The position numbers were made by a program, and so were the translations under genes. From positions 9,014 to 73,013 of the forward strand of contig JAFQHN010000025.1 in assembly GCA_017397935.1 (NCBI GenBank): DNA of 64,000 nucleotides, read 5' to 3'. Origin of the DNA: Bacillota bacterium (GTDB lineage: Bacteria > Bacillota > Dehalobacteriia > UBA4068 > UBA4997). This document shows positions 17,525 through 54,597 of the stretch, piece after piece (position 1 is the stretch's first letter; each line of letters opens with the position of its first letter). The notes beneath the pieces were generated by a model. It saw nothing but the letters and a program-made list of their open reading frames with translations. It did no database searches and was not told where the DNA came from.

Positions 17525-17600
<76 letters not shown>

Positions 17601-35649: not shown

Positions 35650-36723
35650 ATGACTGAAACTAAAAATGAAATTAAGACTGAAACGAGAATTAAGCTGTTT
35701 GATTCGGTGCAGGAAGTTGATAATTTGCAGGTAGAGCAGGCACGGCGTATCAACTCGGCCACCCACGAGGAAATTATTGCCGGCCAAACCAGTGATATTT
35801 ACTTTATTAAAACGCAGGATATTCTGCGCCACCTGGGCAAGGATGACACGGTGGTTACGGCGGAGATTTTTGCCCGCAAACCCGGCCTTTTCGTTGGTAT
35901 CAATGAGGTGCTTGGCCTGTTGCAGGACGCCCCGGTGGAGGTTTGGGCCCTGCCTGAGGGCAGCGAGATGCAGCCCAAAGAGGTGCTTTGCCGTATTACC
36001 GGCCGTTATTCCGATTTTGGTGTATATGAAACTGCCATACTGGGTATGCTGGCCAGCGCCAGCGGTTGGGCAACGGCGGCCAGGGAAATCAAGCAGGCCT
36101 GCCCGGACAAGCCTGTTTCCTGCTTTGGTGCGCGGCATATTCACCCGGCAGTGGCCCCTGTTATGGAGCGTGCGGCACTTATTGGCGGCTGTGATGCGTG
36201 CAGCTGCGTTTTGGGTGCCAAGCTGTTGGGCAAATATCCGTCCGGCACCACTCCCCATGCGCTGTTCTTAACGGTGGGTGATACTGTGGAGGCTGCGCTG
36301 GCTTATGATGAAATTATGGCGCCCGATGCGGCCCGTGTAATTTTGGTTGATACCTTCCGTGATGAGATTGAGGAAACCATGCGTGTGGCTGAGGCTCTGG
36401 GTGACCGTTTGCAGGGTGTGCGGCTGGATACCCCCTCGGAGCGTGGCGGCGTAACCGTGGGTTTGGTGCATGAGCTGCGCCAGCGTTTGAACTTGGCCGG
36501 CTTGGATAAGGTGCAGATTTTTGTTTCGGGCGGCTTGACCCCCCAGCGTATGCAGGAGCTTTCAGCCGCCGGTGCCGATGCCTTTGGTGTGGGCAGCTTT
36601 ATCTCCGGCGCCCCGGCCATTGATATGACCATGGATTTGAAGGAGGTAAACGGTCAGCCTGTTGCTAAGCGCGGCCGTATCCCCGGCATTACTCCCAATC
36701 CTCGTTTGCAAAAGATGAAATAG
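35650..36723 (+). CDS. Nicotinate phosphoribosyltransferase-like protein (short PncB/NadC-family form)
   Basis: 357 aa; type II PRTase barrel pattern; family assignment from memory only, moderate. Confidence 0.6.
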   Translation: MTETKNEIKTETRIKLFDSVQEVDNLQVEQARRINSATHEEIIAGQTSDIYFIKTQDILRHLGKDDTVVTAEIFARKPGLFVGINEVLGLLQDAPVEVWALPEGSEMQPKEVLCRITGRYSDFGVYETAILGMLASASGWATAAREIKQACPDKPVSCFGARHIHPAVAPVMERAALIGGCDACSCVLGAKLLGKYPSGTTPHALFLTVGDTVEAALAYDEIMAPDAARVILVDTFRDEIEETMRVAEALGDRLQGVRLDTPSERGGVTVGLVHELRQRLNLAGLDKVQIFVSGGLTPQRMQELSAAGADAFGVGSFISGAPAIDMTMDLKEVNGQPVAKRGRIPGITPNPRLQKMK

Positions 36724-36808: not shown

Positions 36809-37393
36809 TCAAGAATAAGTGCGGATAATATCTTCGGCCACTTTGCGTTTGGAAACACAGCGGTCCATGGCCTGCTTTTCGATGTAGCGGTGCGCCTCGG
36901 GTTCGTTGAGTTTTAATTCGCTGATCAGCAGCCATTTGGCGCGGTTGACAATGCGTATCTCCTCCATTTTTTCTTCAATGGAGAGCGTTTTTTTCTCAAA
37001 ACGGCGCAGGTGCTCGCGGGCGCTGGCCAGCCAACTTAACGCCTGTATTATCGTTGGGCGGGAGGTCGGCTTGGGCAGGGTGAATACGCCGTGTTCGGCC
37101 ACTTTATCGTGTATTTCGGCGTGTATCTCGGATTTTACCAACAGCAGCACTACCGTGTTGGCAGATACGCAGCAATCAATGGCAAAACGGGTGCCGGGGT
37201 CATCGGGCAGAGGGGAGTTGATGATGATGTGGTCAAAATTCCTCTCGGCGGTGATGCGTTTGGCGGCGCTGATGCTGGATGCGATATGCACAGGCTGATA
37301 GGTCGCATCAGGCAGGAGGGAGGTCAGCGCGGAGTTGAAATTCTCTGATGAGGATACGACGAGAACGCTGTATACCCGTTCTTTCAGGCTCAT
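36809..37393 (-). CDS. ANTAR-domain RNA-binding antiterminator with atypical (pseudo-)receiver domain, NitR/AmiR-like
   Basis: 194 aa; C-terminal ANTAR helix pattern (...IVNRAKWLLISELKLNEPEAHRYIEKQAMDRCVSKRKVAEDII); the N-terminal receiver-like fold lacks the acidic pocket and phospho-Asp; last gene of the GOGAT-GS operon. Confidence 0.8.
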   Translation of the reverse strand: MSLKERVYSVLVVSSSENFNSALTSLLPDATYQPVHIASSISAAKRITAERNFDHIIINSPLPDDPGTRFAIDCCVSANTVVLLLVKSEIHAEIHDKVAEHGVFTLPKPTSRPTIIQALSWLASAREHLRRFEKKTLSIEEKMEEIRIVNRAKWLLISELKLNEPEAHRYIEKQAMDRCVSKRKVAEDIIRTYS

Positions 37394-37435: not shown

Positions 37436-38647
37436 TTATCTGGCACAGTAGGCATCCAAAATTGTGGCCGGGATGTACTCACGGATGAATTCACTTTCAG
37501 CCGCAAGTTGGCAGGCCGAGCGCAAATCTTGCGGCAGACGGCGATATTTGGCCAGCGTCTGGGTATCGGCCTTATACAGGTTGATATTGGCGGCCGGCGG
37601 CAGATCCAGTTTATTTTCAATGCCGTAAAGGCCGGCGTATATCAGCAGGGCAAAGGCCAGATAAGGATTGGCCGTGGGGTCGGGGGAGCGCAGCTCGGCG
37701 CGGCGGTATTCGCCCATGGCTGCCGGGATACGGATAAGCTGAGAACGGTTTTCCTCTGACCACGAGATGTAACCCGGTGCCTTATTGCTGCCAAACCGCT
37801 TATAAGAGGCCTCGGTCGGGTTCAAAAAGGCCGTCATATCGGCAGTTTTTTCCATGATACCGGCTATCATATAGTACATATTCTCTGCGCCGTCAGCAGC
37901 TTTGACGGACATATTGATGTGAAAACCGTTGCCGGGTTGGTCTGGCAGCGGCTTGGGGCCAAAATCAGCGTAAAGGCCGTTGCGATGAGCGACAGTTTTG
38001 ACGATGGTCTGGAAGGTGAGGGCGTTATCCGCAGCGATAATAGCATCGGAATAGCGGAAGTCGATCTCATTTTGGCCTGGGCCCTCCTCATGGTGAGAAC
38101 TTTCGGGGCGGATACCCATTTGCTCCAAAGTCAGGCAAATCTCGCGGCGGATATTTTCACCTTTATCCTCGGGGGCAATATCCATATAACCGGCCTTGTC
38201 ATAGGGCTCTTTGGTCGGTTCGCCTTCTTCATTTAGCTTAAAGAGATAGAATTCCTGTTCGGCGCCGAAGGCAAAGTTATAGCCGGCGGCTGCGGCGTGC
38301 TGCATAGCCTGTTTCAGCAGAGTACGGGTATCGCTGACACAGGGGCGGCCATCCGGATGGGTAATGCTGGTGAACATACGCACGACTTTGCCGTGTTCCG
38401 GCCGCCAGGGCAGGATCATCAGCGTCTCCGGGTCCGGGTGGAGCAGCAGGTCAGAATGCATTTCATCGCCAAAACCGGCAATCGCCGAGGCGTCGATGGC
38501 TATGCCGTATTCAAAAGCGCGAGGCAGCTCCTCCGGCATTATGGAAATATTTTTTTGTCTGCCAAAGACGTCGCAAAAGGCCAGACGGATAAATTTGACG
38601 TCATCCTCCAGGACGTATTGGATAACCTCTTGTTTTGAATACTTCAT
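37436..38647 (-). CDS. glnA: Glutamine synthetase (type I family, short 403-aa form)
   Basis: GS beta-grasp N-domain and catalytic domain motifs. Confidence 0.85.
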   Translation of the reverse strand: MKYSKQEVIQYVLEDDVKFIRLAFCDVFGRQKNISIMPEELPRAFEYGIAIDASAIAGFGDEMHSDLLLHPDPETLMILPWRPEHGKVVRMFTSITHPDGRPCVSDTRTLLKQAMQHAAAAGYNFAFGAEQEFYLFKLNEEGEPTKEPYDKAGYMDIAPEDKGENIRREICLTLEQMGIRPESSHHEEGPGQNEIDFRYSDAIIAADNALTFQTIVKTVAHRNGLYADFGPKPLPDQPGNGFHINMSVKAADGAENMYYMIAGIMEKTADMTAFLNPTEASYKRFGSNKAPGYISWSEENRSQLIRIPAAMGEYRRAELRSPDPTANPYLAFALLIYAGLYGIENKLDLPPAANINLYKADTQTLAKYRRLPQDLRSACQLAAESEFIREYIPATILDAYCAR

Positions 38648-38665
38648 ATCAGCACCTGCTTTCTG

Positions 38666-39385
38666 TTAATTTGTTACATACATTTGTTTATAGGGGTTGT
38701 GGCTGTCTGGCGTGACAACGGTGAATGGGGCGGAGAGAATCTCAGCCGCATCACAGCCGAAGATAGCGCAATATTCGTTAACGTATTGGGTAAGTTCTGC
38801 CATATCCCCGGCGTTGGCGGGGCGTGCCGTCACCTGGCTGGGGAATTTGACGTCATTACACTCACCGCGCAGGAACAACTTGCCGCCGTGCATACCGGTG
38901 CAGGGGAAGTTGCCGACAATGCGCTTACCGTTGGCATTTAAGCCCAACACCACGATAACACCGCCTGCCTGGTACTCACCGAGGAAACTGCCGGTGACGC
39001 CGCCGATAACCATGACGGGCACTTTATCTTTGTACGCCTTCATGTGGATACCGGCGCGGTAGCCGGCGTTGCCTTTGACAAAAATTTTGCCGCCGCGCAT
39101 AGCATAGCCTGCGGCGTCGCCGATATTGCCGTGGATGATAATGCTGCCGTCGTTCATCGTGTCGCCCACAGCATCCTGGGCATTGGCGTTGACGGTGATG
39201 GCTGCGCCGTTCAGATAAGCACCAAGTGCGTTGCCGGGCACGCCGTTGATAATGATACTGCGCCCGGACATACCGGCGGCGATAAAGCGTTGGCCGCAGC
39301 AGCCTTCCAAGATACATTCTTCGGTACTTTCGCGCAGTTTTTGGTTTAATGCCCCGTGATTGAGGCCTTTTACGTTGATCAACAT
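38666..39385 (-). CDS. Glutamate synthase domain-3-like (GXGXG) subunit
   Basis: 239 aa with repeated G-x-G-x-G beta-helix motifs (GNIGDAAGYAMRGGKIFVKGNAGYRAG). Confidence 0.8.
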   Translation of the reverse strand: MLINVKGLNHGALNQKLRESTEECILEGCCGQRFIAAGMSGRSIIINGVPGNALGAYLNGAAITVNANAQDAVGDTMNDGSIIIHGNIGDAAGYAMRGGKIFVKGNAGYRAGIHMKAYKDKVPVMVIGGVTGSFLGEYQAGGVIVVLGLNANGKRIVGNFPCTGMHGGKLFLRGECNDVKFPSQVTARPANAGDMAELTQYVNEYCAIFGCDAAEILSAPFTVVTPDSHNPYKQMYVTN

Positions 39386-39390
39386 AATTA

Positions 39391-40638
39391 TTATATCTCA
39401 CCTCCGAAGATTTTTCTACGGTCAGCAGGCGTAAAAGCCGCCGGTGTAGGAATTTTTTTCAGCAGATCGAAGTCCAATGTGTCAAGCGGGGTCTGGTTGC
39501 GTATCAGCGCGGTGTAGATACCGGCGCGGTCTACTGCACCGACCAAAATATAGCCGACCAGACGGTTATCGCGGATGAATAATCTTTTCAAGGTATCGGC
39601 GGTGCGTTCTTCGTACATCTCGCCGTCATAGCTGCCGGCCGTCATGGCGTGCAGGCCAAAAAAGCCGATTGAGTTCATCGGGATAGCGTTATCGAATACA
39701 GCGCTGCCACCCGCCATACGGCTGCCGGCGCAATAACCCTGCATATAGGCGTTGGGCATAATGGCCAGCACACGTTTGGTTCCGCAGGAAACATCCTCGA
39801 CCTGGGTACAATCACCGGCGGCGTAGATATGCGGCAGAACGGTAGCCATGTGCTCATCAACGAGAATACCGCGCTCAACGGCCCCTGCGGCGTTTTGCAG
39901 CAGAGACGTGTTGGGGCGCACACCTACGGCCAGTACCAGCACGTCAAAATCCACGGTGCAGCCGCTTTGCATATTGGCGGTGTGGCCGGCAAAGCTTTGG
40001 ACGGTATCACCCAGCATAAAATGGATACCGTTAGCCTCCAAGCGCTGCTGCATCAGGGCGGCACATTCGGCGTCAAGAATGCTGGAAAGCACACGGTCAG
40101 AGAGGTCGCAGACCGTAATGCTGCCAACCCGGCCTTGCAGGCCCTCGGCGCACTTTAAGCCGATGAGACCGGCACCGATAATCAGCACACGGCTGTCCGG
40201 GCGGATGGTTTGTTCCAGCGCGAGGGTGTCATCCAGCGTCATAAAGGTGAATTTGTCTGGCACGGTATCCAGGCCGTTGATTGGCGGTACAAAGGGCGCA
40301 GAACCGGCAGCGATACAAAGTTCATCATAAGGAAGTGTTGTGCCGTCATCCAGCGTGACAGTCTGTGCAGCAGTATCAAGTTTGGTGGCGATGCGGCCGT
40401 ACAGCACCTGGCAGCCCATTTTATCATAGAAATCGGCGCTGCGGTACTGCATACGTTGCAGGTCGGTCTTTCCTTCCAGATAATAAGAGATGAGTGGGCG
40501 GCAGTATACCGGGTGCACCTCCTGAGAGATAACTGTGATTTGCCCGGTGGTATCAGCGCTGCGTATGCCCTCAATGCTGCCTGCGGCAGCCACGCCGTTG
40601 CCGATGATGACATATTGTTTGAGATTTTGTTCGGTCAT
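39391..40638 (-). CDS. FAD/NAD(P)-dependent pyridine nucleotide-disulfide family oxidoreductase (electron-input module of split GOGAT)
   Basis: 415 aa; two Rossmann dinucleotide-binding motifs, GNGVAAAG and GAGLIGLKCAE. Confidence 0.75.
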   Translation of the reverse strand: MTEQNLKQYVIIGNGVAAAGSIEGIRSADTTGQITVISQEVHPVYCRPLISYYLEGKTDLQRMQYRSADFYDKMGCQVLYGRIATKLDTAAQTVTLDDGTTLPYDELCIAAGSAPFVPPINGLDTVPDKFTFMTLDDTLALEQTIRPDSRVLIIGAGLIGLKCAEGLQGRVGSITVCDLSDRVLSSILDAECAALMQQRLEANGIHFMLGDTVQSFAGHTANMQSGCTVDFDVLVLAVGVRPNTSLLQNAAGAVERGILVDEHMATVLPHIYAAGDCTQVEDVSCGTKRVLAIMPNAYMQGYCAGSRMAGGSAVFDNAIPMNSIGFFGLHAMTAGSYDGEMYEERTADTLKRLFIRDNRLVGYILVGAVDRAGIYTALIRNQTPLDTLDFDLLKKIPTPAAFTPADRRKIFGGEI

Positions 40639-40644
40639 CTTGGA

Positions 40645-41088
40645 TCACCTCTCTTCATATACAATGGCGCGGTTGGGGCAGCCTTTGACGCAGGCAGGTT
40701 CACCGCAGGTATTTTGCAGGCATAATTCGCATTTCTGTACCGCGCCGTGCTCACCTTGTGAGAGCGCACCGTAAGGGCAGACCAGCACACAGGTAAGGCA
40801 ACCGACGCATTTATCGCGGTCAATACAGACGGCACCGTCTTTGACGGAGATAGCGCCGGATATGCAGCTTTTGGCGCATATAGGGTCAGTACAATGGCGG
40901 CAGGAAACCGCAAAATTGATATTGCCGGATTCTTCGACCCGAATACGCGGGAAGATGTCGCGGCCTTTCAGTGCTTTAACCATATCTGCCTGGCCGGAAT
41001 TGGCGAAGGCACAGTTATATTCGCACAGGTGGCAGCCGATGCACCATTTTTCGTTGACATATACTCGTTTCATGCAATACCACCTCAC
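40645..41088 (-). CDS. 2x[4Fe-4S] ferredoxin
   Basis: 147 aa with multiple CxxCxxCxxxCP motifs. Confidence 0.75.
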   Translation of the reverse strand: MRWYCMKRVYVNEKWCIGCHLCEYNCAFANSGQADMVKALKGRDIFPRIRVEESGNINFAVSCRHCTDPICAKSCISGAISVKDGAVCIDRDKCVGCLTCVLVCPYGALSQGEHGAVQKCELCLQNTCGEPACVKGCPNRAIVYEER

Positions 41089-42594
41089 TTATTCTCCGGC
41101 ATGGGCGATGCCGAGTATTTGCAGTTCTTTTTCTGTTAAGCCGATACCGCGCAGCATCAAACGGTTGCCGCGCAGAGATTCAATGGAGTTGATGCCCATT
41201 CCGCCCATCATTTCCTTGATCTCATGCCGCCAAGCCGTCATCAAATTGATCAGACGCTCGCTGCCAATATCGGGATTCAGGCGTTTTACCAGTTCCGGCC
41301 GTTGGGTGGCGATACCCCAGTTGCATTTGCCGCCGTGGCAGGAGCGACACAGGTGGCAGCCCAATGCCAACAGCGCCGCGGTAGCAATATAACAGGCATC
41401 CGCGCCGAGTGCGATAGCCTTGACAATATCTGCCGAACTGCGGATACTGCCGCCGACAACCAGCGATACGTTGTTGCGGATACCTTCATCACGCAAACGC
41501 TGATCAACGGCTGCCAATGCCAGTTCAATGGGGATGCCCACGTTGTCGCGGATTCGGGTGGGGGCAGCCCCGGTACCGCCGCGGAAACCGTCTATCGCAA
41601 TAATATCAGCACCGCTGCGGGCAATACCGCTGGCGATGGCGGCGATATTATGTACGGCCGCCACCTTGACGATAATCGGTTTTTTGTATTCGGTTGCCTC
41701 TTTAAGTGAGTAAACAAGCTGTCGCAAATCCTCGATAGAGTAAATATCGTGGTGCGGCGCGGGAGAGATCGCGTCCGAGCCTTCCGGGATCATACGGGTG
41801 CGGGAAACATCACCGATGATTTTGGCGCCGGGCAGGTGGCCGCCGATACCCGGCTTGGCGCCCTGGCCGATTTTGATTTCAATAGCTGCACCGGCTTCCA
41901 GATAATCTTTATACACGCCAAAGCGGCCGGATGCTACCTGCACAATGGTATTGGTGCCGTAGCAATAAAAATCCTCATGCAGACCGCCTTCGCCGGTATT
42001 ATAGAGAATACCCAGTTCGGTTGCAGCACGGGCCAGAGATTCGTGGGCGTTATAGCTGATGGAACCGTAACTCATCGCTGAGAACATAACCGGCATGGAA
42101 AGCTCGATTTGGGGCGGCAGTTCGCATTTCAGTTTGCCGTCAGCGTCACGCTCAACGTGGTCAGGCTTTTTGCCGAGGAAAACGCGGGTCTCCATAGGCT
42201 CGCGCAGCGGGTCGATAGAGGGGTTGGTGACCTGCGAGGCGTTGATCAGCAGCTTATCCCAATAAACGGGGAACTGCTTGGGGTTGCCCATAGAGGATAG
42301 CAGCACGCCGCCGCTGTTGGCCTGCTTGTAAATCTCCTTGACGGTATCCTGCTGCCAGTTGCCGTTTTCGCGCAGGGTACAGTCATTTTTAACGATTTTA
42401 AGTGCATGGGTGGGGCAGAGGCATACGCAGCGTTGGCAGTTTACGCATTTGCTTTCATCACTTTGCATTACGCAGCGGTCAGCGTCGAATTTATGTACTT
42501 CGTTGGCACATTGGCGCTCGCAGACACGGCAGCCAATACAGCGTCTCTCGTTGCGGACGACTTCAAATTCGGGGTAAATCATTTCAATACTCAT
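41089..42594 (-). CDS. Glutamate synthase FMN-binding (domain 2, GltB-like) subunit with N-terminal ferredoxin domain
   Basis: About 500 aa; N-terminal 4Fe-4S motifs, then the GltS FMN-barrel signatures; likely ATG at 42594 overlapping the upstream stop. Confidence 0.85.
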   Translation of the reverse strand: MSIEMIYPEFEVVRNERRCIGCRVCERQCANEVHKFDADRCVMQSDESKCVNCQRCVCLCPTHALKIVKNDCTLRENGNWQQDTVKEIYKQANSGGVLLSSMGNPKQFPVYWDKLLINASQVTNPSIDPLREPMETRVFLGKKPDHVERDADGKLKCELPPQIELSMPVMFSAMSYGSISYNAHESLARAATELGILYNTGEGGLHEDFYCYGTNTIVQVASGRFGVYKDYLEAGAAIEIKIGQGAKPGIGGHLPGAKIIGDVSRTRMIPEGSDAISPAPHHDIYSIEDLRQLVYSLKEATEYKKPIIVKVAAVHNIAAIASGIARSGADIIAIDGFRGGTGAAPTRIRDNVGIPIELALAAVDQRLRDEGIRNNVSLVVGGSIRSSADIVKAIALGADACYIATAALLALGCHLCRSCHGGKCNWGIATQRPELVKRLNPDIGSERLINLMTAWRHEIKEMMGGMGINSIESLRGNRLMLRGIGLTEKELQILGIAHAGE

Positions 42595-43688
42595 CAATAT
42601 GCACCGTCCTTTACTGTTACGATGACCGGTTCGCCGCCGGCGGGCGCCCAGATATTTTCAGCATTGGGTTCCATAGTGCGGATAGCGGCCTCCTCGCTGG
42701 CGATGAACACCTTATCGTCTTTTTCGCCAACGACCATCGAGCGCAGTTTCAGACGGTCGTTAAGCGCCATCATACCGCCGGTAAAGCCCAGCACGATGGA
42801 AAACGGCCCGGTAATCAGCAGGCTGGGGAAGATTGTACGCAGATAAAGGTGTTTTTTCTGGTCCTCAATATCTGTTTTGGCGGCAATAGTGCTCCAAAAC
42901 GGGGCAGCGATGACGCTGGCAGCCTCGCCCATAGTTAAGCCCTGGACGCGCACCAGATAATCCATAATATAAGTAATTACCTCGGTATCCGTTTGCAGCG
43001 TGCATTTATAGCCAAACATCTCGATAAAGCGGCGGTTGGCATCATAAGAGGAAATCTCGCCGTTATGCACCACCGAGTAATCCAGCAGGGTGAAGGGATG
43101 TGCGCCACCCCACCAGCCAGGGGTATTGGTGGGGTAACGGCCGTGTGCAGTCCAGGAATAGCCTTCGTATTCTTCTAATTTATAGAATACGCCAATATCC
43201 TCCGGGTAGCCGACAGCCTTGAAGGTGCCCATATTCTTGCCGCTGGAAAAAACGTAGGCACCGGGCATTTCGGTGTTGATCTGCATAACGGTGCGGGCGA
43301 CGAACTCTTTTTCATCCAACTGCTTTTCAGCCAGTACGGATCTAAGCGGAGCGACGAAATAGCGCCATACGATAGGTTCATCCGTAATAGCCGGTATCTT
43401 GCGGGTGGGGATGATCTCTGATTTTATGATCTCAAATCTTTCTTTCAGGAAGACCTCGCAGCTTTTGCGGGTGGCGCGGTCATCAAAAAACATATGCAGC
43501 GCGTAAAAATCCTTGTACTCGGGATAAATGCCATAGCCGGCAAAGCCGCCGCCCAAACCGTTGGAACGGTCGTGCATGGGGCGCATGGCGTTGATTATCA
43601 TCTCGCCGGACATTCTGTGACCTTCTCGGGAGATAACTGCGGCGATGGCGCATCCGGAGGGTATCCGTACCTGACCTTCTAATTTCAT
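42594..43688 (-). CDS. Glutamate synthase class-II glutamine amidotransferase (domain 1) subunit
   Basis: 364 aa; Ntn-hydrolase N-terminus with Cys after Met processing (...SGCAIAAV); first gene after the promoter. Confidence 0.85.
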   Translation of the reverse strand: MKLEGQVRIPSGCAIAAVISREGHRMSGEMIINAMRPMHDRSNGLGGGFAGYGIYPEYKDFYALHMFFDDRATRKSCEVFLKERFEIIKSEIIPTRKIPAITDEPIVWRYFVAPLRSVLAEKQLDEKEFVARTVMQINTEMPGAYVFSSGKNMGTFKAVGYPEDIGVFYKLEEYEGYSWTAHGRYPTNTPGWWGGAHPFTLLDYSVVHNGEISSYDANRRFIEMFGYKCTLQTDTEVITYIMDYLVRVQGLTMGEAASVIAAPFWSTIAAKTDIEDQKKHLYLRTIFPSLLITGPFSIVLGFTGGMMALNDRLKLRSMVVGEKDDKVFIASEEAAIRTMEPNAENIWAPAGGEPVIVTVKDGAY

Positions 43689-43801
43689 GTCTTATCCTTT
43701 CCTTTGCTGTGATTATATTAAATGGTAAAAAAAGAAAGACGCCCATTTTGACACAGATAAAATACCTGTATCAAAATGAACGCCTTTGCCCATTTGAGTG
43801 A

Positions 43802-43830
43802 ATTATACATCCGGTGGGGCGGGTTGTCAA
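43802..43830 (-). promoter_or_regulatory. Perfect consensus promoter TTGACA-17-TATAAT for the GOGAT-GS-ANTAR operon
   Basis: Minus strand: -35 at forward 43825-43830, -10 at forward 43802-43807, 17-nt GC-rich spacer. Confidence 0.65.
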
Positions 43831-43911
43831 GAATGAATTTATGAATATTGTAAATTTTTGCATTGTTTATGAGAATTATTGCAAATTGTGAAATTTTTTT
43901 GCAAAAAGGGG

Positions 43912-43940
43912 TTGACAACGGGATACCCCCGGCGTATAAT
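43912..43940 (+). promoter_or_regulatory. Perfect consensus promoter TTGACA-17-TATAAT for the glnN-amt-pur-car operon
   Basis: -35 at 43912-43917, -10 at 43935-43940; divergent from the minus-strand promoter with about 80 bp between the -35 boxes. Confidence 0.65.
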
Positions 43941-43958
43941 GACAGCGTAAAGGCAAGG

Positions 43959-43994
43959 GCGTCTTTGAGATATTATCTCAGAGTCGCTTTTTTT
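43959..43994 (+). promoter_or_regulatory. Leader hairpin T1 plus U7 tract (terminator-like), contains motif copy F1
   Basis: gcgtctttgagat/atctcagagtcgc 13-bp stem with 1 mismatch and 1 GU, then TTTTTTT; starts about 12 nt after the predicted TSS. Confidence 0.5.
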
Positions 43995-44034
43995 CTTTGC
44001 AAATATAAAATCGAATATGTTTGGTAAAGGCAAT

Positions 44035-44079
44035 GACGTCTTTGGTGCTTTATGGCACCAAGGGCGTCTTTTATTGTTT
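44035..44079 (+). promoter_or_regulatory. Leader hairpin T2 plus U-rich tract (terminator-like), formed by motif copies F2 and F3
   Basis: gacgtctttggtgc/ggcaccaagggcgtc 14-bp stem with 2 GU, followed by TCTTTTATTGTTT; ends 12 nt before the RBS. Confidence 0.5.
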
Positions 44080-44103
44080 ATCAGGCCAAAGGAGGAATCG
44101 ACC

Positions 44104-46200
44104 ATGGGAAGTGTAGCAAATTATTTCGGCAGTTTGGTTTTTGATGACAGAGTGATGAAGGCCAGCCTTTCGGCGGAAGTTTACCGCAGCCTGAAAAAGA
44201 CTATCGACGAAGGTGTGCCGCTTGACCTCAGCGTTGCCAATGCGGTGGCCGGTGCGATGAAGGAGTGGGCAGTGGCGCATGGGGCAACCCATTATACCCA
44301 TTGGTTTCAACCGCTTACCGGCATTACGGCCGAGAAGCATGACAGCTTTATTGCACCCTCACCGGACGGCGGTGTTATCATGGAATTCTCCGGCAAAGAG
44401 CTGATCAAAGGCGAACCGGATGCTTCATCTTTTCCCTCGGGTGGTTTGCGGGCAACTTTTGAGGCGCGCGGCTATACGGCGTGGGATCCGACCTCTTACG
44501 CTTTTATTAAAGGTAAAACGTTGTGTATCCCCACGGCATTTTGCTCTTACGGCGGCGAGGCGCTGGATAAAAAGACTCCGCTGCTGCGCTCAATGGAGGC
44601 GCTGAACAAGCAGGCGTTGCGTATCCTGCGTTTGTTTGGTAATGATGACGTGAAATGTGTTCGTACCTCCGTCGGCCCGGAGCAGGAATATTTTCTGGTG
44701 GATAAAGCGATGTACGAGCAACGCCGCGATTTGCGCTTTACCGGGCGCACGCTTTTCGGTGCCCGCCCGCCAAAGGGGCAGGAGATGGATGACCATTATT
44801 TCGGCGTCATCAAGCCCCGGGTAGCGGCTTATATGGAAGAGCTGAACGATGAGCTCTGGAAGTTGGGTATTCTGGCCAAGACCGAACATAATGAAGTTGC
44901 CCCGGCACAGCATGAATTGGCCCCGATTTATACCACGACCAATATTGCCACCGACCATAACCAACTGACCATGGAGATTATGCAAAAGGTGGCTGCCAAG
45001 CACGATTTGGTGTGCCTGCTGCATGAGAAACCCTTTGCCGGGGTAAATGGCAGCGGCAAACATAACAACTGGTCCATCTCCACCGATACCGGCGTCAACC
45101 TGCTCTCTCCGGGAGAAACGCCGTATGAGAACGCACAATTCCTGCTTTTCCTGTGTGCGGTCATCAAGGCGGTGGACGATTATCAGGATCTGCTGCGTAT
45201 CTCGGTGGCCAGCGCTGGCAACGATCATCGTCTGGGGGCAAATGAGGCGCCGCCCGCGGTGGTTTCGATGTTCCTGGGTGATGAGTTGAACGCGGTTCTG
45301 GCGGCTATTGAAAACGATACCCCGTACAGCGGTGCAGCCAAAACGCAAATGAAGTTGGGTGTTGACGTGCTGCCCAAATTCCACCGCGATACTACCGACC
45401 GCAACCGAACTTCTCCTTTTGCTTTTACCGGCAATAAGTTTGAGTTCCGTATGCTGGGCTCATCCAACAGTATTGCCTGTGCCAATATCATGCTGAACAG
45501 CGCGGTGGCCGAGAGTTTGAAGGTCTATGCCGACCGGCTGGAAAACGTAGAGGATTTTGATACAGCGCTGCACGATATGATCCGCAAAACTATCAAAGAC
45601 CATAAAAAGATCATCTTTAACGGTAACGGCTACGATGATGAGTGGATCAAAGAGGCCACCGAACAGCGCGGACTGCTGAATTACCGCACCACGCCGGATT
45701 GTGTGCCGCACCTGCTGGATAAGAAAAACGTGGCAATGCTGACGGCCCACGGCGTATTCTCAGAGGCAGAACTGCACTCGCGCTATGAAATCACGCTGGA
45801 AAATTACTGCAAGTCAGTAATTATTGAGGCCAACACAATGGTGGATATGGCAAGAACGGAGATTGCCCCGGCGGTGGAGGCCTATGCTATGGATATTGCC
45901 AATACCGCGGAGGCCAAAAAAGCTCTGGACAGCAACATCACCTGTGGCTATGAGTGCAAGCTGGTCAAAAAGCTTTCGGCCCTGACGGACCGTATTGCCA
46001 TCAATACCGAGGAGTTGGAGGAGGCTCTGCTGGCGCTGGACGATGCTGATGATATTGCTGCCAAGTCTTATGCCATCCGCGATAACGTGCTGACAAAAAT
46101 GAGCGAGCTGCGGCTGGCCTGTGATGAGGCCGAAACTGCGACCGCCAGAAAATATTGGCCCTTCCCGACGTACGGAGACCTGCTTTTTGGCGTTAAATAA
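44104..46200 (+). CDS. glnN: Glutamine synthetase type III
   Basis: Start refined to [10 protein letters not shown] (ATG at 44104; RBS AAAGGAGGAA); GSIII motifs [14 protein letters not shown]. Confidence 0.85.
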
Positions 46201-46243
46201 TGTTGTGTGAGGTTAACTGAAATATTTTATAGGAGTGATAGTG

Positions 46244-47989
46244 ATGGAGGAATCTATTAAAGCATTGGTGGCCGAGGCTGCTGCCAATGAGGTTTTCGGC
46301 GTGTGGTTTTTGATTGGTGCGGCGTTGGTTTTCTGGATGCAGGCCGGGTTTACGATGGTGGAGGCCGGCTTTACCAGAGCAAAAAATACCGGCAACATCA
46401 TTATGAAAAACCTGATGGATTTTTGTATCGGCACGGTTGGCTTTGTTCTGCTGGGTTTCAGCCTGATGATGGCCGAGGATTATGTGCTGGGATTTATCGG
46501 CATCCCCAACCTGAATATTTTTACTGATTTCGGCGGTTTTATCCAGAGCAACGCATCCAGCTTTGTGTTCAACCTGGTGTTCTGTGCCACGGCGGCTACT
46601 ATCGTATCCGGTGCGATGGCGGAACGCACTAAGTTTTCTTCTTATTGCATTTATTCGGCTATTATTTCGCTTTTTGTTTACCCGGTGGAGGCCGGTTGGA
46701 TCTGGAACCCGCAGGGTTGGCTGGCGCAGATGGGCTTTCATGATTTTGCCGGTTCTGCTGCCATTCACGCTGTCGGCGGTCTTAGTGCGCTGATCGGTGC
46801 TGTCATCGTAGGTCCCCGTCTGGGCAAGTATGTAAAAGATGAAAACGGCAAGGTAAGGAAAATCAATGCTATTCCCGGTCATTCGGTGGCGTTGGGCGCG
46901 CTGGGCTGCTTTATCTTGTGGTTTGGCTGGTATGGCTTTAACGGTGCGGCTGCTTGGGATCAGGTATCGCTGGCCTCGATCTTCCTGACGACGACTATTG
47001 CCCCGGCGGTGGCAACGTGTACCACGCTGATTTTTACCTGGGTGAAAAACGGCAAACCTGACGTTTCAATGTGTTTGAATGCTGCGCTGGCCGGTTTGGT
47101 GGGTATTACCGCAGGTTGTGACGCGCTGGACGCGGTGGGTGCTGCTGTGGTAGGTGTTGTGGCCGGTCTGCTGGTGGTGCTGATGGTAGAGTGGCTGGAT
47201 TTGAAACTGCATATTGATGACCCCGTTGGTGCGGTAAGTGTGCATTTGGCCTGTGGTATCTGGGGCACGCTGGCTGTCGGTCTGCTGGCTGACCCGGTGG
47301 CGCCTGCCGGGCTGAACGGTTTGCTTTATACCGGCGACGCTGGTCTGCTGGGTATTCAGGCTGTTGGTATCGGTGCGGTGCTGCTCTGGACGGCGGTATG
47401 CATGACGCTGACGTTCAGTATCATCAAAATGACCGTGGGTCTGCGGGTATCCCCCGAAGAAGAAATTAAGGGTTTGGACAGCACCGAACACGGCCTGCCC
47501 AGTGCTTATGCTGATTTCCTGCCGGCGGCCGAGACTTTGTATCACGGCTATGAGGAGGCAGCAGTTGTAAGCGGCGATACGCCGGTGGCAGAGGCAATAC
47601 CCGTAAAGAAAGTGCCGTCCTTTGGTGAAGGCACGCCTAAATTTACCAAGGTAGAGATCATTTGTAAGGAATCGCGGTTTGAGGTGCTGAAAAACGCCAT
47701 GATGGATATTGGCATTACCGGCATGACGGTATCGCACGTGCTGGGCTGCGGTATCCAGAAGGGTAAGCCGGAGTATTACCGCGGCGTACAGTTAGAGGCT
47801 AATCTGCTGCCGAAAATCCAGGTGGATATTGTAGTCAGCAAGGTGCCGGTACGCAGCGTCATTGAAACTGCCAAGAAGGTGCTTTACACCGGGCATATCG
47901 GCGACGGCAAGATCTTCGTTTATGATGTGGAGAACGTGGTAAAGGTTCGTACCGGCGAAGAAGGCTACGATGCATTACAGGATGATTAA
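46244..47989 (+). CDS. amt: Ammonium transporter Amt fused to a C-terminal PII (GlnK/GlnB-like) domain
   Basis: An Amt/MEP membrane domain of about 430 aa, a linker, then a roughly 110-aa PII fold (...GITGMTVSHVLGCGIQKGKPEYYRG...GDGKIFV); ATG 46244 after AGGAG. Confidence 0.85.
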   Translation: MEESIKALVAEAAANEVFGVWFLIGAALVFWMQAGFTMVEAGFTRAKNTGNIIMKNLMDFCIGTVGFVLLGFSLMMAEDYVLGFIGIPNLNIFTDFGGFIQSNASSFVFNLVFCATAATIVSGAMAERTKFSSYCIYSAIISLFVYPVEAGWIWNPQGWLAQMGFHDFAGSAAIHAVGGLSALIGAVIVGPRLGKYVKDENGKVRKINAIPGHSVALGALGCFILWFGWYGFNGAAAWDQVSLASIFLTTTIAPAVATCTTLIFTWVKNGKPDVSMCLNAALAGLVGITAGCDALDAVGAAVVGVVAGLLVVLMVEWLDLKLHIDDPVGAVSVHLACGIWGTLAVGLLADPVAPAGLNGLLYTGDAGLLGIQAVGIGAVLLWTAVCMTLTFSIIKMTVGLRVSPEEEIKGLDSTEHGLPSAYADFLPAAETLYHGYEEAAVVSGDTPVAEAIPVKKVPSFGEGTPKFTKVEIICKESRFEVLKNAMMDIGITGMTVSHVLGCGIQKGKPEYYRGVQLEANLLPKIQVDIVVSKVPVRSVIETAKKVLYTGHIGDGKIFVYDVENVVKVRTGEEGYDALQDD

Positions 47990-48003
47990 AACTGCGAATT
48001 AAG

Positions 48004-48735
48004 ATGGGAGAGATGACCGCGATGGAAAAAAGAGAGCAGCTTTATGAAGGTAAGGCCAAGAAGGTATTCAAAACGGACGATCCGGAGCTATTGATCGTAT
48101 CATATAAGGACGATGCGACCGCTTTTAACGGATTGAAAAAGGGAACGATCTCCGGCAAAGGCGTCATCAATAACAAAATGACCAATATGCTGATGCAGCG
48201 GCTGGAACAAGCCGGTATCCCAACGCACTTTGTGGAGGAATTATCCGACCGCGATACGTTGGTAAAAAAGGTGACTATCATACCGCTGGAAGTGATCGTG
48301 CGGAATATTGCCGCCGGTTCATTCTCTCAAAGATACGGGGTGGAGGAGGGCGTCGTTTTTGACGCCCCCACCATTGAGTTTTCTTATAAGAATGATGAGC
48401 TGGGAGATCCGCTGCTTAATACATACCACGCTGTTGCCATGAAACTGGCCACGCCGCAAGACATCGAAACCATCACCAAATACGCCTTTGCTGTTAACAA
48501 ACAGTTAAAGGCATTTTGGCGTGAATGCGGTGTTACGCTGGTAGACTTCAAAATGGAATTTGGCAAGGTGGCGGACGGTAGCATTGTGCTGGCAGATGAG
48601 ATAAGCCCCGATACCAGCCGTCTGTGGGACAGCTCCACCGGCAAAAAACTGGATAAGGACAGATTTCGCCGGGATTTGGGCGGAGTTGAGGACGCCTATA
48701 CCGAGATAATGCGGCGGCTGACGCAGCATATCTGA
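48004..48735 (+). CDS. purC: SAICAR synthetase
   Basis: 243 aa; canonical PurC motifs; starts 14 nt after the amt stop. Confidence 0.9.
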   Translation: MGEMTAMEKREQLYEGKAKKVFKTDDPELLIVSYKDDATAFNGLKKGTISGKGVINNKMTNMLMQRLEQAGIPTHFVEELSDRDTLVKKVTIIPLEVIVRNIAAGSFSQRYGVEEGVVFDAPTIEFSYKNDELGDPLLNTYHAVAMKLATPQDIETITKYAFAVNKQLKAFWRECGVTLVDFKMEFGKVADGSIVLADEISPDTSRLWDSSTGKKLDKDRFRRDLGGVEDAYTEIMRRLTQHI

Positions 48736-48809
48736 GCTATGGCGGCTGATATAAATGACAAATATAAAAATGAGTAAAAAACTGGCAATATGATAACGGA
48801 GGAGATTTT

Positions 48810-50090
48810 ATGTCAAACTGTGCTATCGTTGGTATCAACTGGGGAGATGAAGGCAAAGGCCGAATGGTCGATCTGCTGACCGAAAATTATGACGTGGTGG
48901 TGCGTTATCAGGGCGGCGGCAATGCCGGGCATACCGTCATCAATGAGTACGGTAAATTCGCGCTGCACCTGCTGCCTTCGGGCATTTTCCGTCCGGGGGT
49001 GGTAAATATCCTCGGCAACGGCGTGGCGTTAGATCCGGAAAATCTGTGGATGGAAATGCAGGAGGTCATCGGGCAGGGTGTGGCAATATCGCCTGAAAAC
49101 TTGAAAATTAGCGAGCGCGCATCTATACTGCTGCCCTGGCACCGCGATTTGGATGAGTTGGAGGAGCAGCGCTTGCAGGATAAACAATATGGCTCCACCA
49201 GGCAGGGTATCGCGCCTTTTTATTCGGATAAATACCAGAAAAAAACCGTAATGGCCGGCGAATTTTTTTACCCGGAGCAGCTTAAAAAGCACCTGGCAGA
49301 ATTGCTGGAATGGAAAAATCTCATCCTGACGCGGGTGTATGGTGCCAAGCCTTATACCATGGCGATGTTGGAGGATTGGCTGGCTGATTACTGTGCCAAA
49401 ATCAAACCTTATATCTGTGATACCGGTGCGTTTTTGCAGGAGGCTCAGGCGGCCGGCAAAAACATTCTCTTTGAGGCCCAGCTTGGGGCGCTGCGTGATT
49501 TGGATTACGGCATTTACCCCTATGCCACCTCATCCAACACCACGGTGGCCTATGCGCCGATCGGTTCGGGCCTGCCCTCGGTTAAAATCAATGACGTAGT
49601 GGGCGTGGTGAAGGCATATTCCACCTGTGTGGGTGCCGGGCCCTTTGTCTGTGAGATGTTTGGGGATGAGGCCGAGGCGCTGCGCAAAGCCGGCTTTGAG
49701 TATGGTGCCAAAACCGGGCGTCCGCGCCGTGTGGGCCCGGTAGACATCGTGGCGACCCGTTACGGGGTTAAGGTGCAGGCAGCTACCGCCATCGCGCTGA
49801 CTAAACTGGACGTGTTGAGTTATCTGGATAAAATCCCGGTATGCACGCATTACTTGCTGAACGGCGAGCAGACCGACAGTTTCCCCTTCCCGGCGGCGCT
49901 GCATGATGCCCAGCCGGTCATCCGTTATTTTGACGGCTGGCAGTGTGATATTTCCGCCGTACGCTGCTGGGAGGATCTGCCGCAGGCCGCACAGGAATAT
50001 GTAAGCTTTATTGAGCAGCAGATCGGCTGCCCGATCAAATATATCTCAGTAGGGCCGGAGCGAGAAAGTATCATTATCCGGGATAAATAA
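48810..50090 (+). CDS. purA: Adenylosuccinate synthetase
   Basis: 426 aa; G-x-QWGDEGKGK P-loop-like motif and GHT. Confidence 0.95.
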   Translation: MSNCAIVGINWGDEGKGRMVDLLTENYDVVVRYQGGGNAGHTVINEYGKFALHLLPSGIFRPGVVNILGNGVALDPENLWMEMQEVIGQGVAISPENLKISERASILLPWHRDLDELEEQRLQDKQYGSTRQGIAPFYSDKYQKKTVMAGEFFYPEQLKKHLAELLEWKNLILTRVYGAKPYTMAMLEDWLADYCAKIKPYICDTGAFLQEAQAAGKNILFEAQLGALRDLDYGIYPYATSSNTTVAYAPIGSGLPSVKINDVVGVVKAYSTCVGAGPFVCEMFGDEAEALRKAGFEYGAKTGRPRRVGPVDIVATRYGVKVQAATAIALTKLDVLSYLDKIPVCTHYLLNGEQTDSFPFPAALHDAQPVIRYFDGWQCDISAVRCWEDLPQAAQEYVSFIEQQIGCPIKYISVGPERESIIIRDK

Positions 50091-50105
50091 AAAAGGAGTG
50101 GCAGT

Positions 50106-51527
50106 ATGACAAATTACGACCAATATCAATCGCCGTTGACCTCGCGCTATGCGTCGCAATATATGCTGGGCCTTTTCTCGGCGGATACGCGGTACCGCAC
50201 CTGGCGTAAGCTTTGGGTGGCGCTGGCCCGGGCTCAGATGCAGTTGGGGCTGCCGGTGACCCAGGCGCAGGTGGATGAGCTGGCGGATAACGTTGAAAAT
50301 ATCGACTATGAATGTGTGCAGAAAAGAGAGGCGCAGGTTCGCCACGACGTTATGGCGCACGTTTATGCTTATGGGCAGGCTGCGCCCACGGCGGCAGGCA
50401 TCATTCATCTGGGCGCCACAAGCTGCTATGTTACGGATAATGCCGATTTGATAATTTACCGTGATGCTCTGCGTTATTTACGCGCAGAGCTGCTGCGCGT
50501 TATGGCTAATCTGGCTGATTTTGCTGATGAGTACAAGGCGCTGCCGACTCTGGGTTATACGCATTATCAGCCGGCGCAGCTTGTTACCGTCGGTAAGCGT
50601 GCCAGCCTGTGGTTGCAAGACCTGCTGAGCGATTTGGAGGAGATTGACTTTGTGCTGGGCAGCATTAAGTTTTTGGGCTGCCGCGGAACAACTGGCACCG
50701 AGGCCAGCTTTATGGAGCTTTTTGGTGGGGATACGGCCAAAATTGATGAGATGAACCGTATGATCGCAGCGGAATTTGGCTTTGCCGGCTGCTTTGACGT
50801 GTGCGGACAGACGTACCCGCGCAAGCTGGACGCGCGTATTCTTAATTGCCTGTCATCGGTGGCGCAGAGCTGTTATCGTATGGCAAATGATATTCGCCTG
50901 TTGCAGCATGACCGGCAGATTGAGGAGCCTTTTGAGAAAGACCAGATAGGCTCTTCGGCGATGGCTTATAAGCGCAACCCAATGCGGAGTGAGCGTATAT
51001 GCTCTCTGGCGCGGTATCTGATGACAGACGTGCTTAACACCCATATAACGGCATCTGTACAATGGTTGGAGCGCACGCTGGATGATTCGGCCAACCGGCG
51101 TATCTCGCTGCCGGAGGGCTTTTTGTGTGCGGATGCGGTGCTGCGGCTGGCACAGAATGTCACCGACGGCCTGCACGTTAACGAGAAGATCATCGAGAAA
51201 ACGGTACGGGAATATCTGCCCTTCATCGCGACAGAGAATTTGATGATGGAGGCGGTAAAGCGCGGCGGAGACCGCCAAAAGCTGCATGAGATCATTCGCC
51301 GCTGTTCTATGGCAGCGTCAGCCAGGATGAAAAACGGTGAAGAATGTGATTTGCTGGCGCGGCTGGCGGCAGAGCAGGAGTTTTGCCTGACCGAGGTGGA
51401 AATGAACAAGCTGCTGGAACCTGCGCTTTATATTGGACGCTGCCCGGAGCAGGTGGATGCGCTGCTTGCCAAAGTGCGCCCGTTGCTGGCCGATGTAGAG
51501 CGCCAATCGGCACAAATCAACCTGTAA
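50106..51527 (+). CDS. purB: Adenylosuccinate lyase
   Basis: 473 aa; fumarate-lyase superfamily signature. Confidence 0.95.
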   Translation: MTNYDQYQSPLTSRYASQYMLGLFSADTRYRTWRKLWVALARAQMQLGLPVTQAQVDELADNVENIDYECVQKREAQVRHDVMAHVYAYGQAAPTAAGIIHLGATSCYVTDNADLIIYRDALRYLRAELLRVMANLADFADEYKALPTLGYTHYQPAQLVTVGKRASLWLQDLLSDLEEIDFVLGSIKFLGCRGTTGTEASFMELFGGDTAKIDEMNRMIAAEFGFAGCFDVCGQTYPRKLDARILNCLSSVAQSCYRMANDIRLLQHDRQIEEPFEKDQIGSSAMAYKRNPMRSERICSLARYLMTDVLNTHITASVQWLERTLDDSANRRISLPEGFLCADAVLRLAQNVTDGLHVNEKIIEKTVREYLPFIATENLMMEAVKRGGDRQKLHEIIRRCSMAASARMKNGEECDLLARLAAEQEFCLTEVEMNKLLEPALYIGRCPEQVDALLAKVRPLLADVERQSAQINL

Positions 51528-51544
51528 AATAGAAAATCCGGAAG

Positions 51545-53122
51545 ATGATGGAGAGAATGATGAATAACACAATAATGAGCAATACCATGCAAGAAAAAAT
51601 TTTGGTGCTTGATTTTGGCGGGCAGTACAACCAGCTTATCGCACGGCGAGTGCGAGAGCAGCACGTTTATGCTGAGATTAAGCCGTATAATAAAATATCG
51701 GTGGCCCAGATAAAAGAGGCCGGCTATAAGGGCGTTATTTTTACCGGCGGGCCCAACAGCGTATATGATGAAAACTCGCCGCATTATGACCCTGCAATAC
51801 TGGATGCCGGTATTCCGGTGCTGGGTATCTGCTATGGCGCGCAGTTGATGGCCTGGATGGCGGGCGGCACGGTAAGCAGCGCCGATAACAGTAGTGAATA
51901 TGGCAAAACGCAGGTAACGGCGGCCGAAAATACATTATTTGCAGGCGTGCCGCGCGAGAGTATCTGCTGGATGAGTCATACTGATTTTATCCAAACGCCG
52001 CCGGTCGGTTTCCGCGTGATTGCACATACGGATAAATGTCCTTGCGCCGCCATGTGTGATGAGGGACGCAGGCTTTATGCGGTGCAATTCCACCCGGAAG
52101 TAACGCACACGGTATACGGCAGGCAAATGCTGCATAATTTCCTTTTTGTTGTCTGCGGCTGCTGTGGTGATTGGAAGATGGAGGATTTTGTCGAGCAGAC
52201 TATCGCAAAATACCGCACAGAACTGGCCGATAAGAAGGTGCTGCTGGCACTCTCGGGCGGTGTGGATTCGGCGGTGGCGGCGGTGCTGCTGCATCGCGCT
52301 GTCGGATCGAATCTTACCTGTGTGTTTGTTGACCATGGGCTGCTGCGCAAGGACGAGGGCGATTTTGTGGAGCGTACCTTCCGCGAGAAATTTGCTATGA
52401 ATCTGATACGGGTAAACGCGGCCGAGAGATTTTTGAGCAAACTGGCCGGGGTGACCGAGCCGGAGAAAAAGCGCAAGATCATCGGCGAGGAATTTATCCG
52501 CGTTTTTGAGGATGAGGCCAAAAAGTTGGGCAAAATCAACGCTCTGGCGCAGGGCACCATCTATCCGGACGTGATTGAAAGCGGTAAGGGGGATTCGGCT
52601 GTTATCAAAAGCCACCATAACGTCGGCGGTTTGCCGGATGTAGTTGACTTTGATGAGATTGTCGAACCGCTGCGGGAACTTTTCAAAGATGAGGTGCGCG
52701 AAGTCGGCACGCGGTTGGGTATCCCGCATGATTTGGTGTGGCGGCAACCTTTCCCCGGGCCGGGGCTGGCGGTGCGTGTCATCGGTGAGATAACCGAGGA
52801 CAAACTGGCGTTGCTGCGCGAGGCTGACGCTATCTTTTGCGAAGAAGTGGCGCAGGCCGGGTTGGAGAAAGTGGCCAACCAATACTTTGCGGTTCTGACG
52901 GGGCTTAAAAGCGTTGGTGTGATGGGTGACGCCGGCACTTATGGCTATACTATCGCTTTGAGGGCGGTGACGACGGATGACTTTATGACGGCGGAATGGA
53001 CAAGGTTGCCCTATGAGGTGCTGGAACGTGCCAGCAGCCGTATCACCAACGAGGTGCCGGGCGTCAGCCGTGTGGTTTATGACATTACCGGCAAGCCGCC
53101 GGCCACGGTGGAATGGGAATAA
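51545..53122 (+). CDS. guaA: GMP synthase (glutamine-hydrolysing)
   Basis: 525 aa; GATase1 domain plus ATP-PPase SGGVDS motif; the true start may be the internal [14 protein letters not shown] at 51587. Confidence 0.95.
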
Positions 53123-53155
53123 ACATGGCAGCAAATTTTCGCGCGGAGGTGCAGT

Positions 53156-54589: not shown

Positions 54590-54597
54590 GGTGCTGT

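Follow-up and report, generated by a model that had tools for sequence, protein, structure and literature searches.

The 416-nt intergenic region studied here separates a class-II glutamine amidotransferase gene (42594-43688, minus strand) from glnN (44104-46200, plus strand) in a Bacillota bacterium (assembly GCA_017397935.1, contig JAFQHN010000025.1). The window that we analysed is the whole 64,000-nt stretch from position 9,014 to 73,013 of that contig, and all coordinates are given relative to its first letter. Two divergent promoters in this region each lead into a transcript that begins with a repeated motif and runs into terminator-like hairpins. A preliminary description made from the sequence proposed a candidate uncharacterised nitrogen-responsive attenuator. 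Our comparison with published RNAs makes it very probable that the motif is an ANTAR-type hexaloop hairpin, and that the leaders belong to the known class of NitR- and GnfR-like antitermination systems rather than to a new class of riboregulator. The term 'uncharacterised' therefore has to be given up, since the element is the hexaloop hairpin already represented in the seed set of Ramesh 2012 and in the binding site of GnfR. A protein-mediated ANTAR circuit acting on terminator/antiterminator leaders of two divergent nitrogen operons, which the preliminary description had thought plausible, is the best explanation.

Both promoters match the TTGACA-17-TATAAT consensus at 12 of 12 positions, as had been claimed. 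The promoter of the glnN operon lies at 43912-43940 on the plus strand (TTGACA 43912-43917, 17-nt spacer, TATAAT 43935-43940). The promoter of the operon that encodes glutamate synthase (GOGAT), glutamine synthetase (GS) and an ANTAR protein lies at 43830-43802 on the minus strand (TTGACA 43830-43825, 17-nt spacer, TATAAT 43807-43802). A scan returned 8 promoter-like sites, compared with 1.6 ± 1.3 in shuffles. Judged from these sequences, the plus transcript is predicted to start at about 43947-43949 and the minus transcript at about 43795.

The first 20-22 nt of either transcript can fold as a hexaloop hairpin, and the glnN leader holds a second such unit. Motif scanning and folding in isolation both identify hairpin 1 (43948-43967, plus strand, UAAAGGC[AAGGGC]GUCUUUG, loop 43955-43960), hairpin 2 (44025-44044, plus strand, UAAAGGC[AAUGAC]GUCUUUG, loop 44032-44037) and the minus-leader hairpin (43795-43774, minus strand, AAAUGGGC[AAAGGC]GUUCAUUU, loop 43787-43782) as putative antiterminators. 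Stems of 7-8 bp carry hexaloops of the form AAnGnn, in each case closed by a C-G pair, with A as the first two loop bases and G as the fourth. The GGCAARGGCGT element of the preliminary description is this hairpin read as RNA. The two promoter-proximal hairpins begin 7 nt (plus) and 6 nt (minus) past their -10 boxes. The reported repeat family was also recovered, with copies at 43947-43967, 44024-44044 and 44052-72 and inverted matches at 43735-43744 and 43763-43787. The window contains 10 occurrences of the pattern GGCAANGNCGT, where 0.96 would be expected. Seven of these copies lie outside the region, all in coding sequence and none overlapping a terminator, and they probably reflect Gly-Lys/Asn-Gly-Val codons.

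Each hairpin overlaps a terminator that is far more stable. T1 (43955-43998, plus strand) has a helix at 43955-43991 and a T-run at 43988-43994 followed by CTTT (-18.8 kcal/mol, z = -5.1); its apical stem-loop was found in the terminator scan, and its 5' strand is made up of the loop and the 3' arm of hairpin 1. T2 (44035-44079, plus strand) has a 15-bp helix at 44035-44068 (GACGUCUUUGGUGC...GGCACCAAGGGCGUC) followed by UUUUAUUGUUU, with TTTTATTGTT standing right after the helix (-29.2 kcal/mol, z = -7.6). The minus-leader terminator (43787-43727, minus strand) has a 25-bp helix at 43787-43735 followed by CUUUUUUU at 43734-43727, with CTTTTTTT standing right after the helix (-35.6 kcal/mol, z = -7.8). 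Here the preliminary description was right that there is a terminator but not about its extent, which covers the whole 25-bp helix rather than an 11-bp apical hairpin. The terminator scan, which also recovered T2 and the minus-leader structure, returned 6 terminator-like sites compared with 1.1 ± 1.1 in shuffles, in agreement with the terminator-like hairpins first noted as T1 and T2. The three terminator-like structures fold far below shuffled sequence (z -5.1 to -8.7).

In the minus leader as in the plus leader, the terminator takes its 5' strand from the hairpin's loop and 3' arm, so the two structures exclude each other. If the hairpin is held, the rest of the terminator is left as an apical stem with an unconserved loop. 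Alone, the hairpins fold with just -4.5 to -5 kcal/mol, and enforcing a hairpin over its terminator costs 14.8 (hairpin 1/T1), 16.9 (hairpin 2/T2) and 16.0 (minus leader) kcal/mol. These costs imply termination by default, with a stabilising factor required for read-through. The overlap also accounts for the remaining 'repeat copies': 44059-44070 (called F3 originally) and 43746-43735 in the minus leader are terminator 3' strands. They resemble the hairpin 5' arm because GUCUUU or GUUCA is the pairing partner of both; in the minus leader this mimic of the 5' arm reads UGGGCGUCUUU.

ANTAR-target RNAs have hexaloops with A at position 1 and G at position 4 (A1/G4), stems of at least 3 bp and an overlap with a terminator (Ramesh 2012, PMC3369931). 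We identify the hairpins as ANTAR-type because the A1/G4 hexaloop and the C-G closing pair are the hallmarks of the hairpins bound by EutV, NasR and AmiR. The targets of EutV (Enterococcus eut), NasR (Klebsiella nasF) and AmiR (Pseudomonas amiE) have the same closing pair and mostly AAnGnn loops, and they share with the window short stems of free sequence, competition with a terminator and a link to nitrogen metabolism. The published seed hairpins eutP, AAACAC[AAUGGC]GUGUUU, and eutA, UUAAGC[AAAGGC]GCUUAA, illustrate the likeness (Ramesh 2012, PMC3369931, Fig. S1). For several Firmicutes, Clostridia included, targets have also been predicted ahead of GS, GOGAT, amt and PII genes (Ramesh 2012, PMC3369931, Table S2). 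The preliminary description saw no match to an ANTAR motif: this holds for the canonical dual-hexaloop arrangement, which is absent, but not for the hexaloop hairpin itself, since each unit has a C[AAnGnn]G hairpin.

A covariance model built from 16 published ANTAR hairpins only (R1) leads to the same place. We scanned the whole window with it on both strands (128 kb) with filters off, and hairpin 2 ranked second, the minus-leader hairpin third and hairpin 1 fifth. Three of the top five matches thus fall within 0.65% of the window, a clustering that is very unlikely by chance. The top match, at 35972-35987, lies inside a nicotinate phosphoribosyltransferase coding sequence, and we rejected it as a chance match.

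The nearest described parallel is in Geobacter, whose ANTAR response regulator GnfR binds RNA that contains CAGGCAAGGGCGCC (Ueki and Lovley 2010, PMC2995071). In Geobacter sulfurreducens the conserved CAGGCAANGGCGCC overlaps leader terminators of nifH, nifEN and glnK-amtB (PMC2995071), and a literature search on the motif string matched this paper alone. The window has three GnfR-type sites, GGCAAGGGCGUC, GGCAAUGACGUC and GGCAAAGGCGUU, each overlapping its own terminator. The two systems share the core GGC[AAnGGC]G(C/U)C, its overlap with the upstream half of a leader terminator, nitrogen targets that include amtB and PII, and a regulator with receiver (REC) and ANTAR domains. They differ in that GnfR is a true response regulator activated by the kinase GnfK, whereas the window protein has Asn at the acceptor position. 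Moreover, the Geobacter genes use RpoN promoters and activation by enhancer-binding proteins, whereas the window has perfect sigma-70 consensus promoters with the hairpin at the 5' end of the transcript.

The arrangement is conserved. A search with GlnN yielded 80 loci from Clostridia genomes (65-86% identity), and about 40 of them have the hairpin-terminator layout upstream of glnN, amt-PII, GOGAT or GS genes. It is found across Oscillospiraceae, Ruminococcus, Lachnospiraceae and Christensenella-like genomes. In an unbiased census of hexaloop hairpins, AA.G loops made up 12.9% upstream of glnN and 1.9% elsewhere in the loci, a difference of about 7-fold. Scanning the related loci for C[AA.G..]G hairpins that overlap a terminator gave 81 good units, nearly all of which precede glnN(-amt-PII), amt-PII, split or large GOGAT operons, or GS-I-ANTAR operons, and which are always oriented in the direction of transcription. 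Genes glnN and amt-PII stand after such a unit in most of these loci, and the form AAUGAGC[AAAGGC]GUUCAUU recurs upstream of GOGAT operons in many of them. An ANTAR gene closes a motif-headed operon in at least 11 loci, the window included.

Conservation and covariation in orthologous leaders had been named at the outset as the test of the motif, and both were found. We used 66 units chosen by loop, closing pair, terminator and a position no more than 300 nt upstream of a nitrogen-gene homologue (GlnN, AmtPII, GOGAT or GS-I). Pairing of the 5' arm was not required, to avoid circularity, and the 300-nt limit was imposed after a looser terminator criterion over whole loci admitted about 100 false positives in coding regions, which lacked 5'-arm pairing. 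One artefact is present among the 66 (the minus-strand 'GS_I' unit of locus L011 is the reverse complement of a plus-strand terminator 3' strand), and it leaves the statistics unchanged. Stem positions 2, 3 and 4 are paired in 96%, 95% and 92% of the units. At position 3 the pairs include G-C (28), A-U (25) and C-G (8), and at position 2 G-U is the commonest (34 of 64). Across a gap-free alignment of the 64 distinct units (A1) the covariation score is 0.594, compared with 0.249 ± 0.022 in shuffles (a value reached in none of 500) and 0.10-0.21 with slid partners, and changes on both sides were seen at six of the seven stem pairs. The terminator 5' strand begins within the loop in 65 of the 66 units. 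The hexaloop and its closing pair are the sole conserved part, and the asymmetric loop AAnGGC is the most conserved.

Several related loci carry variations on this theme. In six Ruminococcus-type loci (L022, L026, L028, L030, L031 and L034) a switch with different stems lies about 3.6 kb upstream of glnN: tandem CAGC[AAGGGA]GCUG and CAUACAC[AAAGGG]GUGUAUG units precede amt-PII, a gene of about 530 aa and glnN, and on the divergent side a GAAC[AAGGAC]GUUC unit stands before a large gltB (~1500 aa). The arrangement as divergent operons is thus conserved despite the differences in stems and genes. Variants outside the strict pattern occur in L029 (~9870-9920) and upstream of glnN in L013, L014, L018, L020 and L027; some of their loops start with G (GACGGC, GAUGAC) and others read AUUGGC, and in L029 the terminator 3' strand pairs with the hairpin 5' arm and not with the loop and 3' arm. 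An extra hairpin-terminator unit in L002 (515-534) and L003 (3021-3040) precedes an open reading frame (ORF) upstream of glnN, of 153 aa in L002 (a short contig) and 444 aa in L003, whose C-terminus looks glutamate dehydrogenase-like by eye.

Canonical ANTAR targets have two hexaloop hairpins, P1 and P2, that are 5-12 nt apart and both needed by EutV (Ramesh 2012, PMC3369931; Walshe 2022, PMC8934654). The targets of EutV, NasR and AmiR follow this plan, whereas the window has one hairpin per terminator, in the position of P2, the 'antitermination hairpin'. Among the related leaders, 42 of 54 have a single unit and 12, including the glnN leader of the window, have two complete units in series. 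These paired units are 63-179 nt apart, each of them a gate rather than half of a P1-P2 pair. A promoter (at least 10 of 12 matches) can be recognised ahead of 39 units, and in 36 of them the hairpin starts 5-14 nt past the -10 box, so that no upstream P1 hairpin could be transcribed. Regulation through one hairpin is not implausible because both ANTAR domains of the EutV dimer engage one hexaloop in the crystal structure with RNA, where P2 blocks the terminator (Walshe 2022, PMC8934654), and because GnfR shifts a 48-nt RNA with a single hexaloop site (PMC2995071).

The candidate trans-acting regulator is encoded by the last gene of the minus operon (36809-37393, minus strand). This 194-aa protein combines a pseudo-receiver with an ANTAR domain, in the manner of NitR (Pfam ANTAR E = 1.3e-16, a weak Response_reg match); no NCBIfam model names a NitR-like regulator. 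Its relatives in the PDB are Rv1626, AmiR and EutV. The degenerate receiver seen by the preliminary description is borne out by alignment with Rv1626: Asn59 takes the place of the phospho-acceptor Asp, and Ser-Ser-Ser-Glu that of the acidic pocket. Asn is likewise found at the acceptor position in 19 of 22 regulator homologues in the related loci, without the acidic pocket. Pfam finds no kinase gene in the minus operon, and no AmiC/NasS-like partner gene was seen there. Since the acceptor Asp is replaced by Asn, control would come from a partner protein or ligand and not from a kinase. Activity is presumably set by a partner, as in AmiR-AmiC or NasT-NasS, where a non-phosphorylated pseudo-receiver is also joined to an ANTAR domain; AmiR is itself among the structural relatives detected.

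The rest of the minus operon (37436-43688, minus strand) encodes, by Pfam, the GATase-2 subunit, the FMN subunit of glutamate synthase, a 4Fe-4S protein, a pyridine-nucleotide (NAD(P)) oxidoreductase, a GXGXG subunit and GS type I, so that split GOGAT, GS-I and the REC-ANTAR protein are encoded together on this strand. The same chain (GATase2, GltS, Fer4, PyrRedox, GXGXG, GS-I, ANTAR) recurs in the window and related loci. NitR of Clostridium saccharobutylicum is described as an ANTAR antiterminator that induces GS/GOGAT under nitrogen limitation (review PMC6316151). As in the window, the REC-ANTAR gene of C. saccharobutylicum and C. acetobutylicum stands directly downstream of glnA (GS-I), with GOGAT in the same regulatory unit (glnA-nitR, gltAB); an antisense RNA is a further component there. 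C. thermocellum Clo1313_2030-2036 (GATase-II, GltS, 4Fe-4S ... ANTAR), a cluster that includes an ANTAR response regulator, matches the window in gene order. A literature search for nitrogen-limitation transcriptomics in Ruminococcus gave nothing useful. Besides the regulator's own gene, the regulon of the NitR-like protein likely comprises those for split GOGAT, GS-I, GS-III and Amt-PII; the pur, gua and car genes may belong to it too.

We propose that both operons have very strong, probably constitutive promoters and that control would be exerted after initiation by ANTAR-type antitermination. The 5' end of each transcript, and the second unit of the glnN leader, can fold as a weak C-G-closed AAnGnn hexaloop hairpin. 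By default the overlapping terminator would form and transcription would stop before glnN or the GOGAT genes. Under nitrogen limitation the NitR-like ANTAR protein would bind and hold the emerging hairpin, which would withhold the terminator 5' strand and let RNA polymerase read through. In the glnN leader polymerase meets two such gates in series. As the regulator is encoded in one of the operons that it would control, the circuit may be positively autoregulated. Its receiver lacks the phospho-acceptor Asp, and its activity would presumably respond to a protein partner or ligand. We also suggest, tentatively and at somewhat less than even odds, that these leaders form a distinct minimal ANTAR subclass: one 5'-end hairpin, without the P1 'recruitment' hairpin, nested in its own terminator and served by a phosphorylation-independent NitR-type regulator with a partner-derived nitrogen signal (from GS-I or PII, for example). 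The one-hairpin 5'-terminal layout and the phosphorylation-independent regulator are the only features that go beyond textbook ANTAR systems.

Some observations weigh against this assignment. The window has A1/G4 hexaloops, likeness to published hairpins, a covarying stem, terminator overlap and an encoded ANTAR protein, but it lacks tandem P1 and P2 hairpins. No convincing second A1/G4 hexaloop hairpin lies within 45 nt of the window's hairpins, and in the related loci such a hairpin occurs within 45 nt at chance level (12% upstream and 14% downstream, compared with 10% and 9% in shuffled flanks). Single-hit R1 E-values are 0.23-1.5, not significant singly and weak because the model spans just 16 positions. 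ANTAR genes are not visible in 23 motif-bearing loci, many of them short contigs and so uninformative. The signal input is speculative, with GS-I (encoded immediately upstream) or PII as conceivable partners, and in this organism the pairing of the ANTAR protein with the hairpin is predicted from sequence. The absence of the dual hairpin that characterised ANTAR proteins require, the 23 loci and the indirect case for binding would also suit a scheme in which some other RNA-binding factor stabilises the hairpin and the ANTAR gene is linked for another reason. We regard this as quite unlikely, because the loop and closing pair match published ANTAR hairpins and the GnfR-bound sequence, ANTAR genes lie within motif-headed operons in at least 11 loci, and no alternative RNA-binding gene is conserved in the neighbourhood.

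The preliminary description favoured an attenuator in which AAGGGCGUC of one repeat copy pairs with GACGUCUUU in a different copy, perhaps linked to translation of a short upstream ORF (uORF) that begins with a GKG motif. The copies are indeed complementary to one another through G-U pairs, the glnN leader has two units, and many GOGAT-type leaders have an ATG in the 5' arm. Yet every unit is self-contained, a local hairpin set against its own terminator; a single unit in 42 of 54 leaders precludes a general mechanism of this kind; and 'F3' and the minus 3' copy are already explained as terminator 3' strands. The uORFs fare no better. That of the plus leader (ATG 44017) reads in frame into glnN without a stop codon and lacks a Shine-Dalgarno sequence; it is the ORF finder's N-terminal extension of glnN, and homologues align from residue 1 of the 44104 start. 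The 26-codon minus uORF begins at the predicted transcription start and, its ATG lying at the very 5' end of the transcript, lacks a Shine-Dalgarno sequence. Just 19 of 66 related leaders have an ATG there, and the encoded peptides, 6 to >80 codons long, diverge after six residues, with only the hairpin-encoded M-x-K-G-V-H in common. Inter-copy pairing is thus very unlikely.

A DNA operator, in which a nitrogen-responsive transcription factor binds the inverted repeat and represses both promoters from just past the start, would fit the dyad symmetry of the element and its place 5-14 bp downstream of the -10 box, the classic position for a repressor. It is made highly improbable by the nature of that symmetry, which holds at the RNA level only (G-U at stem position 2 in 34 of 64 units, compensatory changes that keep pairing), by the asymmetry of the most conserved part, the loop AAnGGC, by the second units 63-179 nt downstream of the first, far from the promoters, and by an orientation that always follows transcription. 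Direct sensing of glutamine or 2-oxoglutarate, for example, by a small-molecule riboswitch would suit the position in nitrogen-gene leaders ahead of an expression platform. We give this next to no credence: the element is a plain 18-22 nt hairpin, without internal loops or junctions for a pocket, and its conservation is limited to the hexaloop and closing pair, as is typical of a protein-binding site. Moreover, no Rfam family matches the leader region at the gathering threshold in a search of the whole window, and at E <= 10 the segment 43600-44200 returns only chance-level telomerase, miRNA and sRNA models, with no glutamine riboswitch, T-box or thiamine pyrophosphate (TPP) riboswitch, as had been judged by eye.

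The genes and sequences around the leaders complete the picture. By Pfam, the plus operon (44104-58864, plus strand) comprises glnN (GS type III), an Amt-PII fusion, purC, purA, purB, guaA, purF, carA and carB, and the earlier gene assignments, including the Amt-PII fusion, split GOGAT and GS, agree with it. Short gaps between the genes suggest that the plus operon is one transcript. The genes after glnN (46235-58864, plus strand), with purC to carB following amt-PII, mostly encode enzymes that use up glutamine or aspartate. In related loci, PurF, GuaA and ~530-aa genes (the last PyrG-like by C-terminal sequence only) are also found downstream of glnN or amt-PII. Such a placement of the pur, gua and car genes suggests that amidotransferases are co-expressed under nitrogen control. 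Between the promoters, an AT-rich spacer (43831-43911) contains repeated TTGCAAA-type words, in direct (43876-43885 and 43896-43905) and inverted (43876-43885 and 43898-43907) orientation, which could be UP elements or a transcription-factor site. Inspection by eye only showed no TnrA/GlnR box (TGTNAN7TNACA) between the promoters. Elsewhere, the sole riboswitch in the window is a TPP riboswitch at 11507-11612 on the minus strand (Rfam RF00059, 60.4 bits). Four tRNA genes are all on the minus strand (15090-15178, 17528-17600, 23103-23175 and 58922-59005), and a 964-aa protein with a BlaR1-type M56 peptidase domain (59105-61999, minus strand) has no relation to the leaders.

Antitermination control after initiation would explain why two nitrogen operons in a genome of gut or rumen Clostridia have perfect-consensus promoters. 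The comparative units could seed an RNA family model for a region in which cmscan against Rfam matched no family. The one-hairpin layout, together with a pseudo-receiver, makes this a compact system for asking how many hairpins an ANTAR dimer needs and which signal controls the non-phosphorylated ANTAR proteins. Should a single hairpin prove sufficient in vivo, the rule of two hairpins drawn from EutV would not hold generally.

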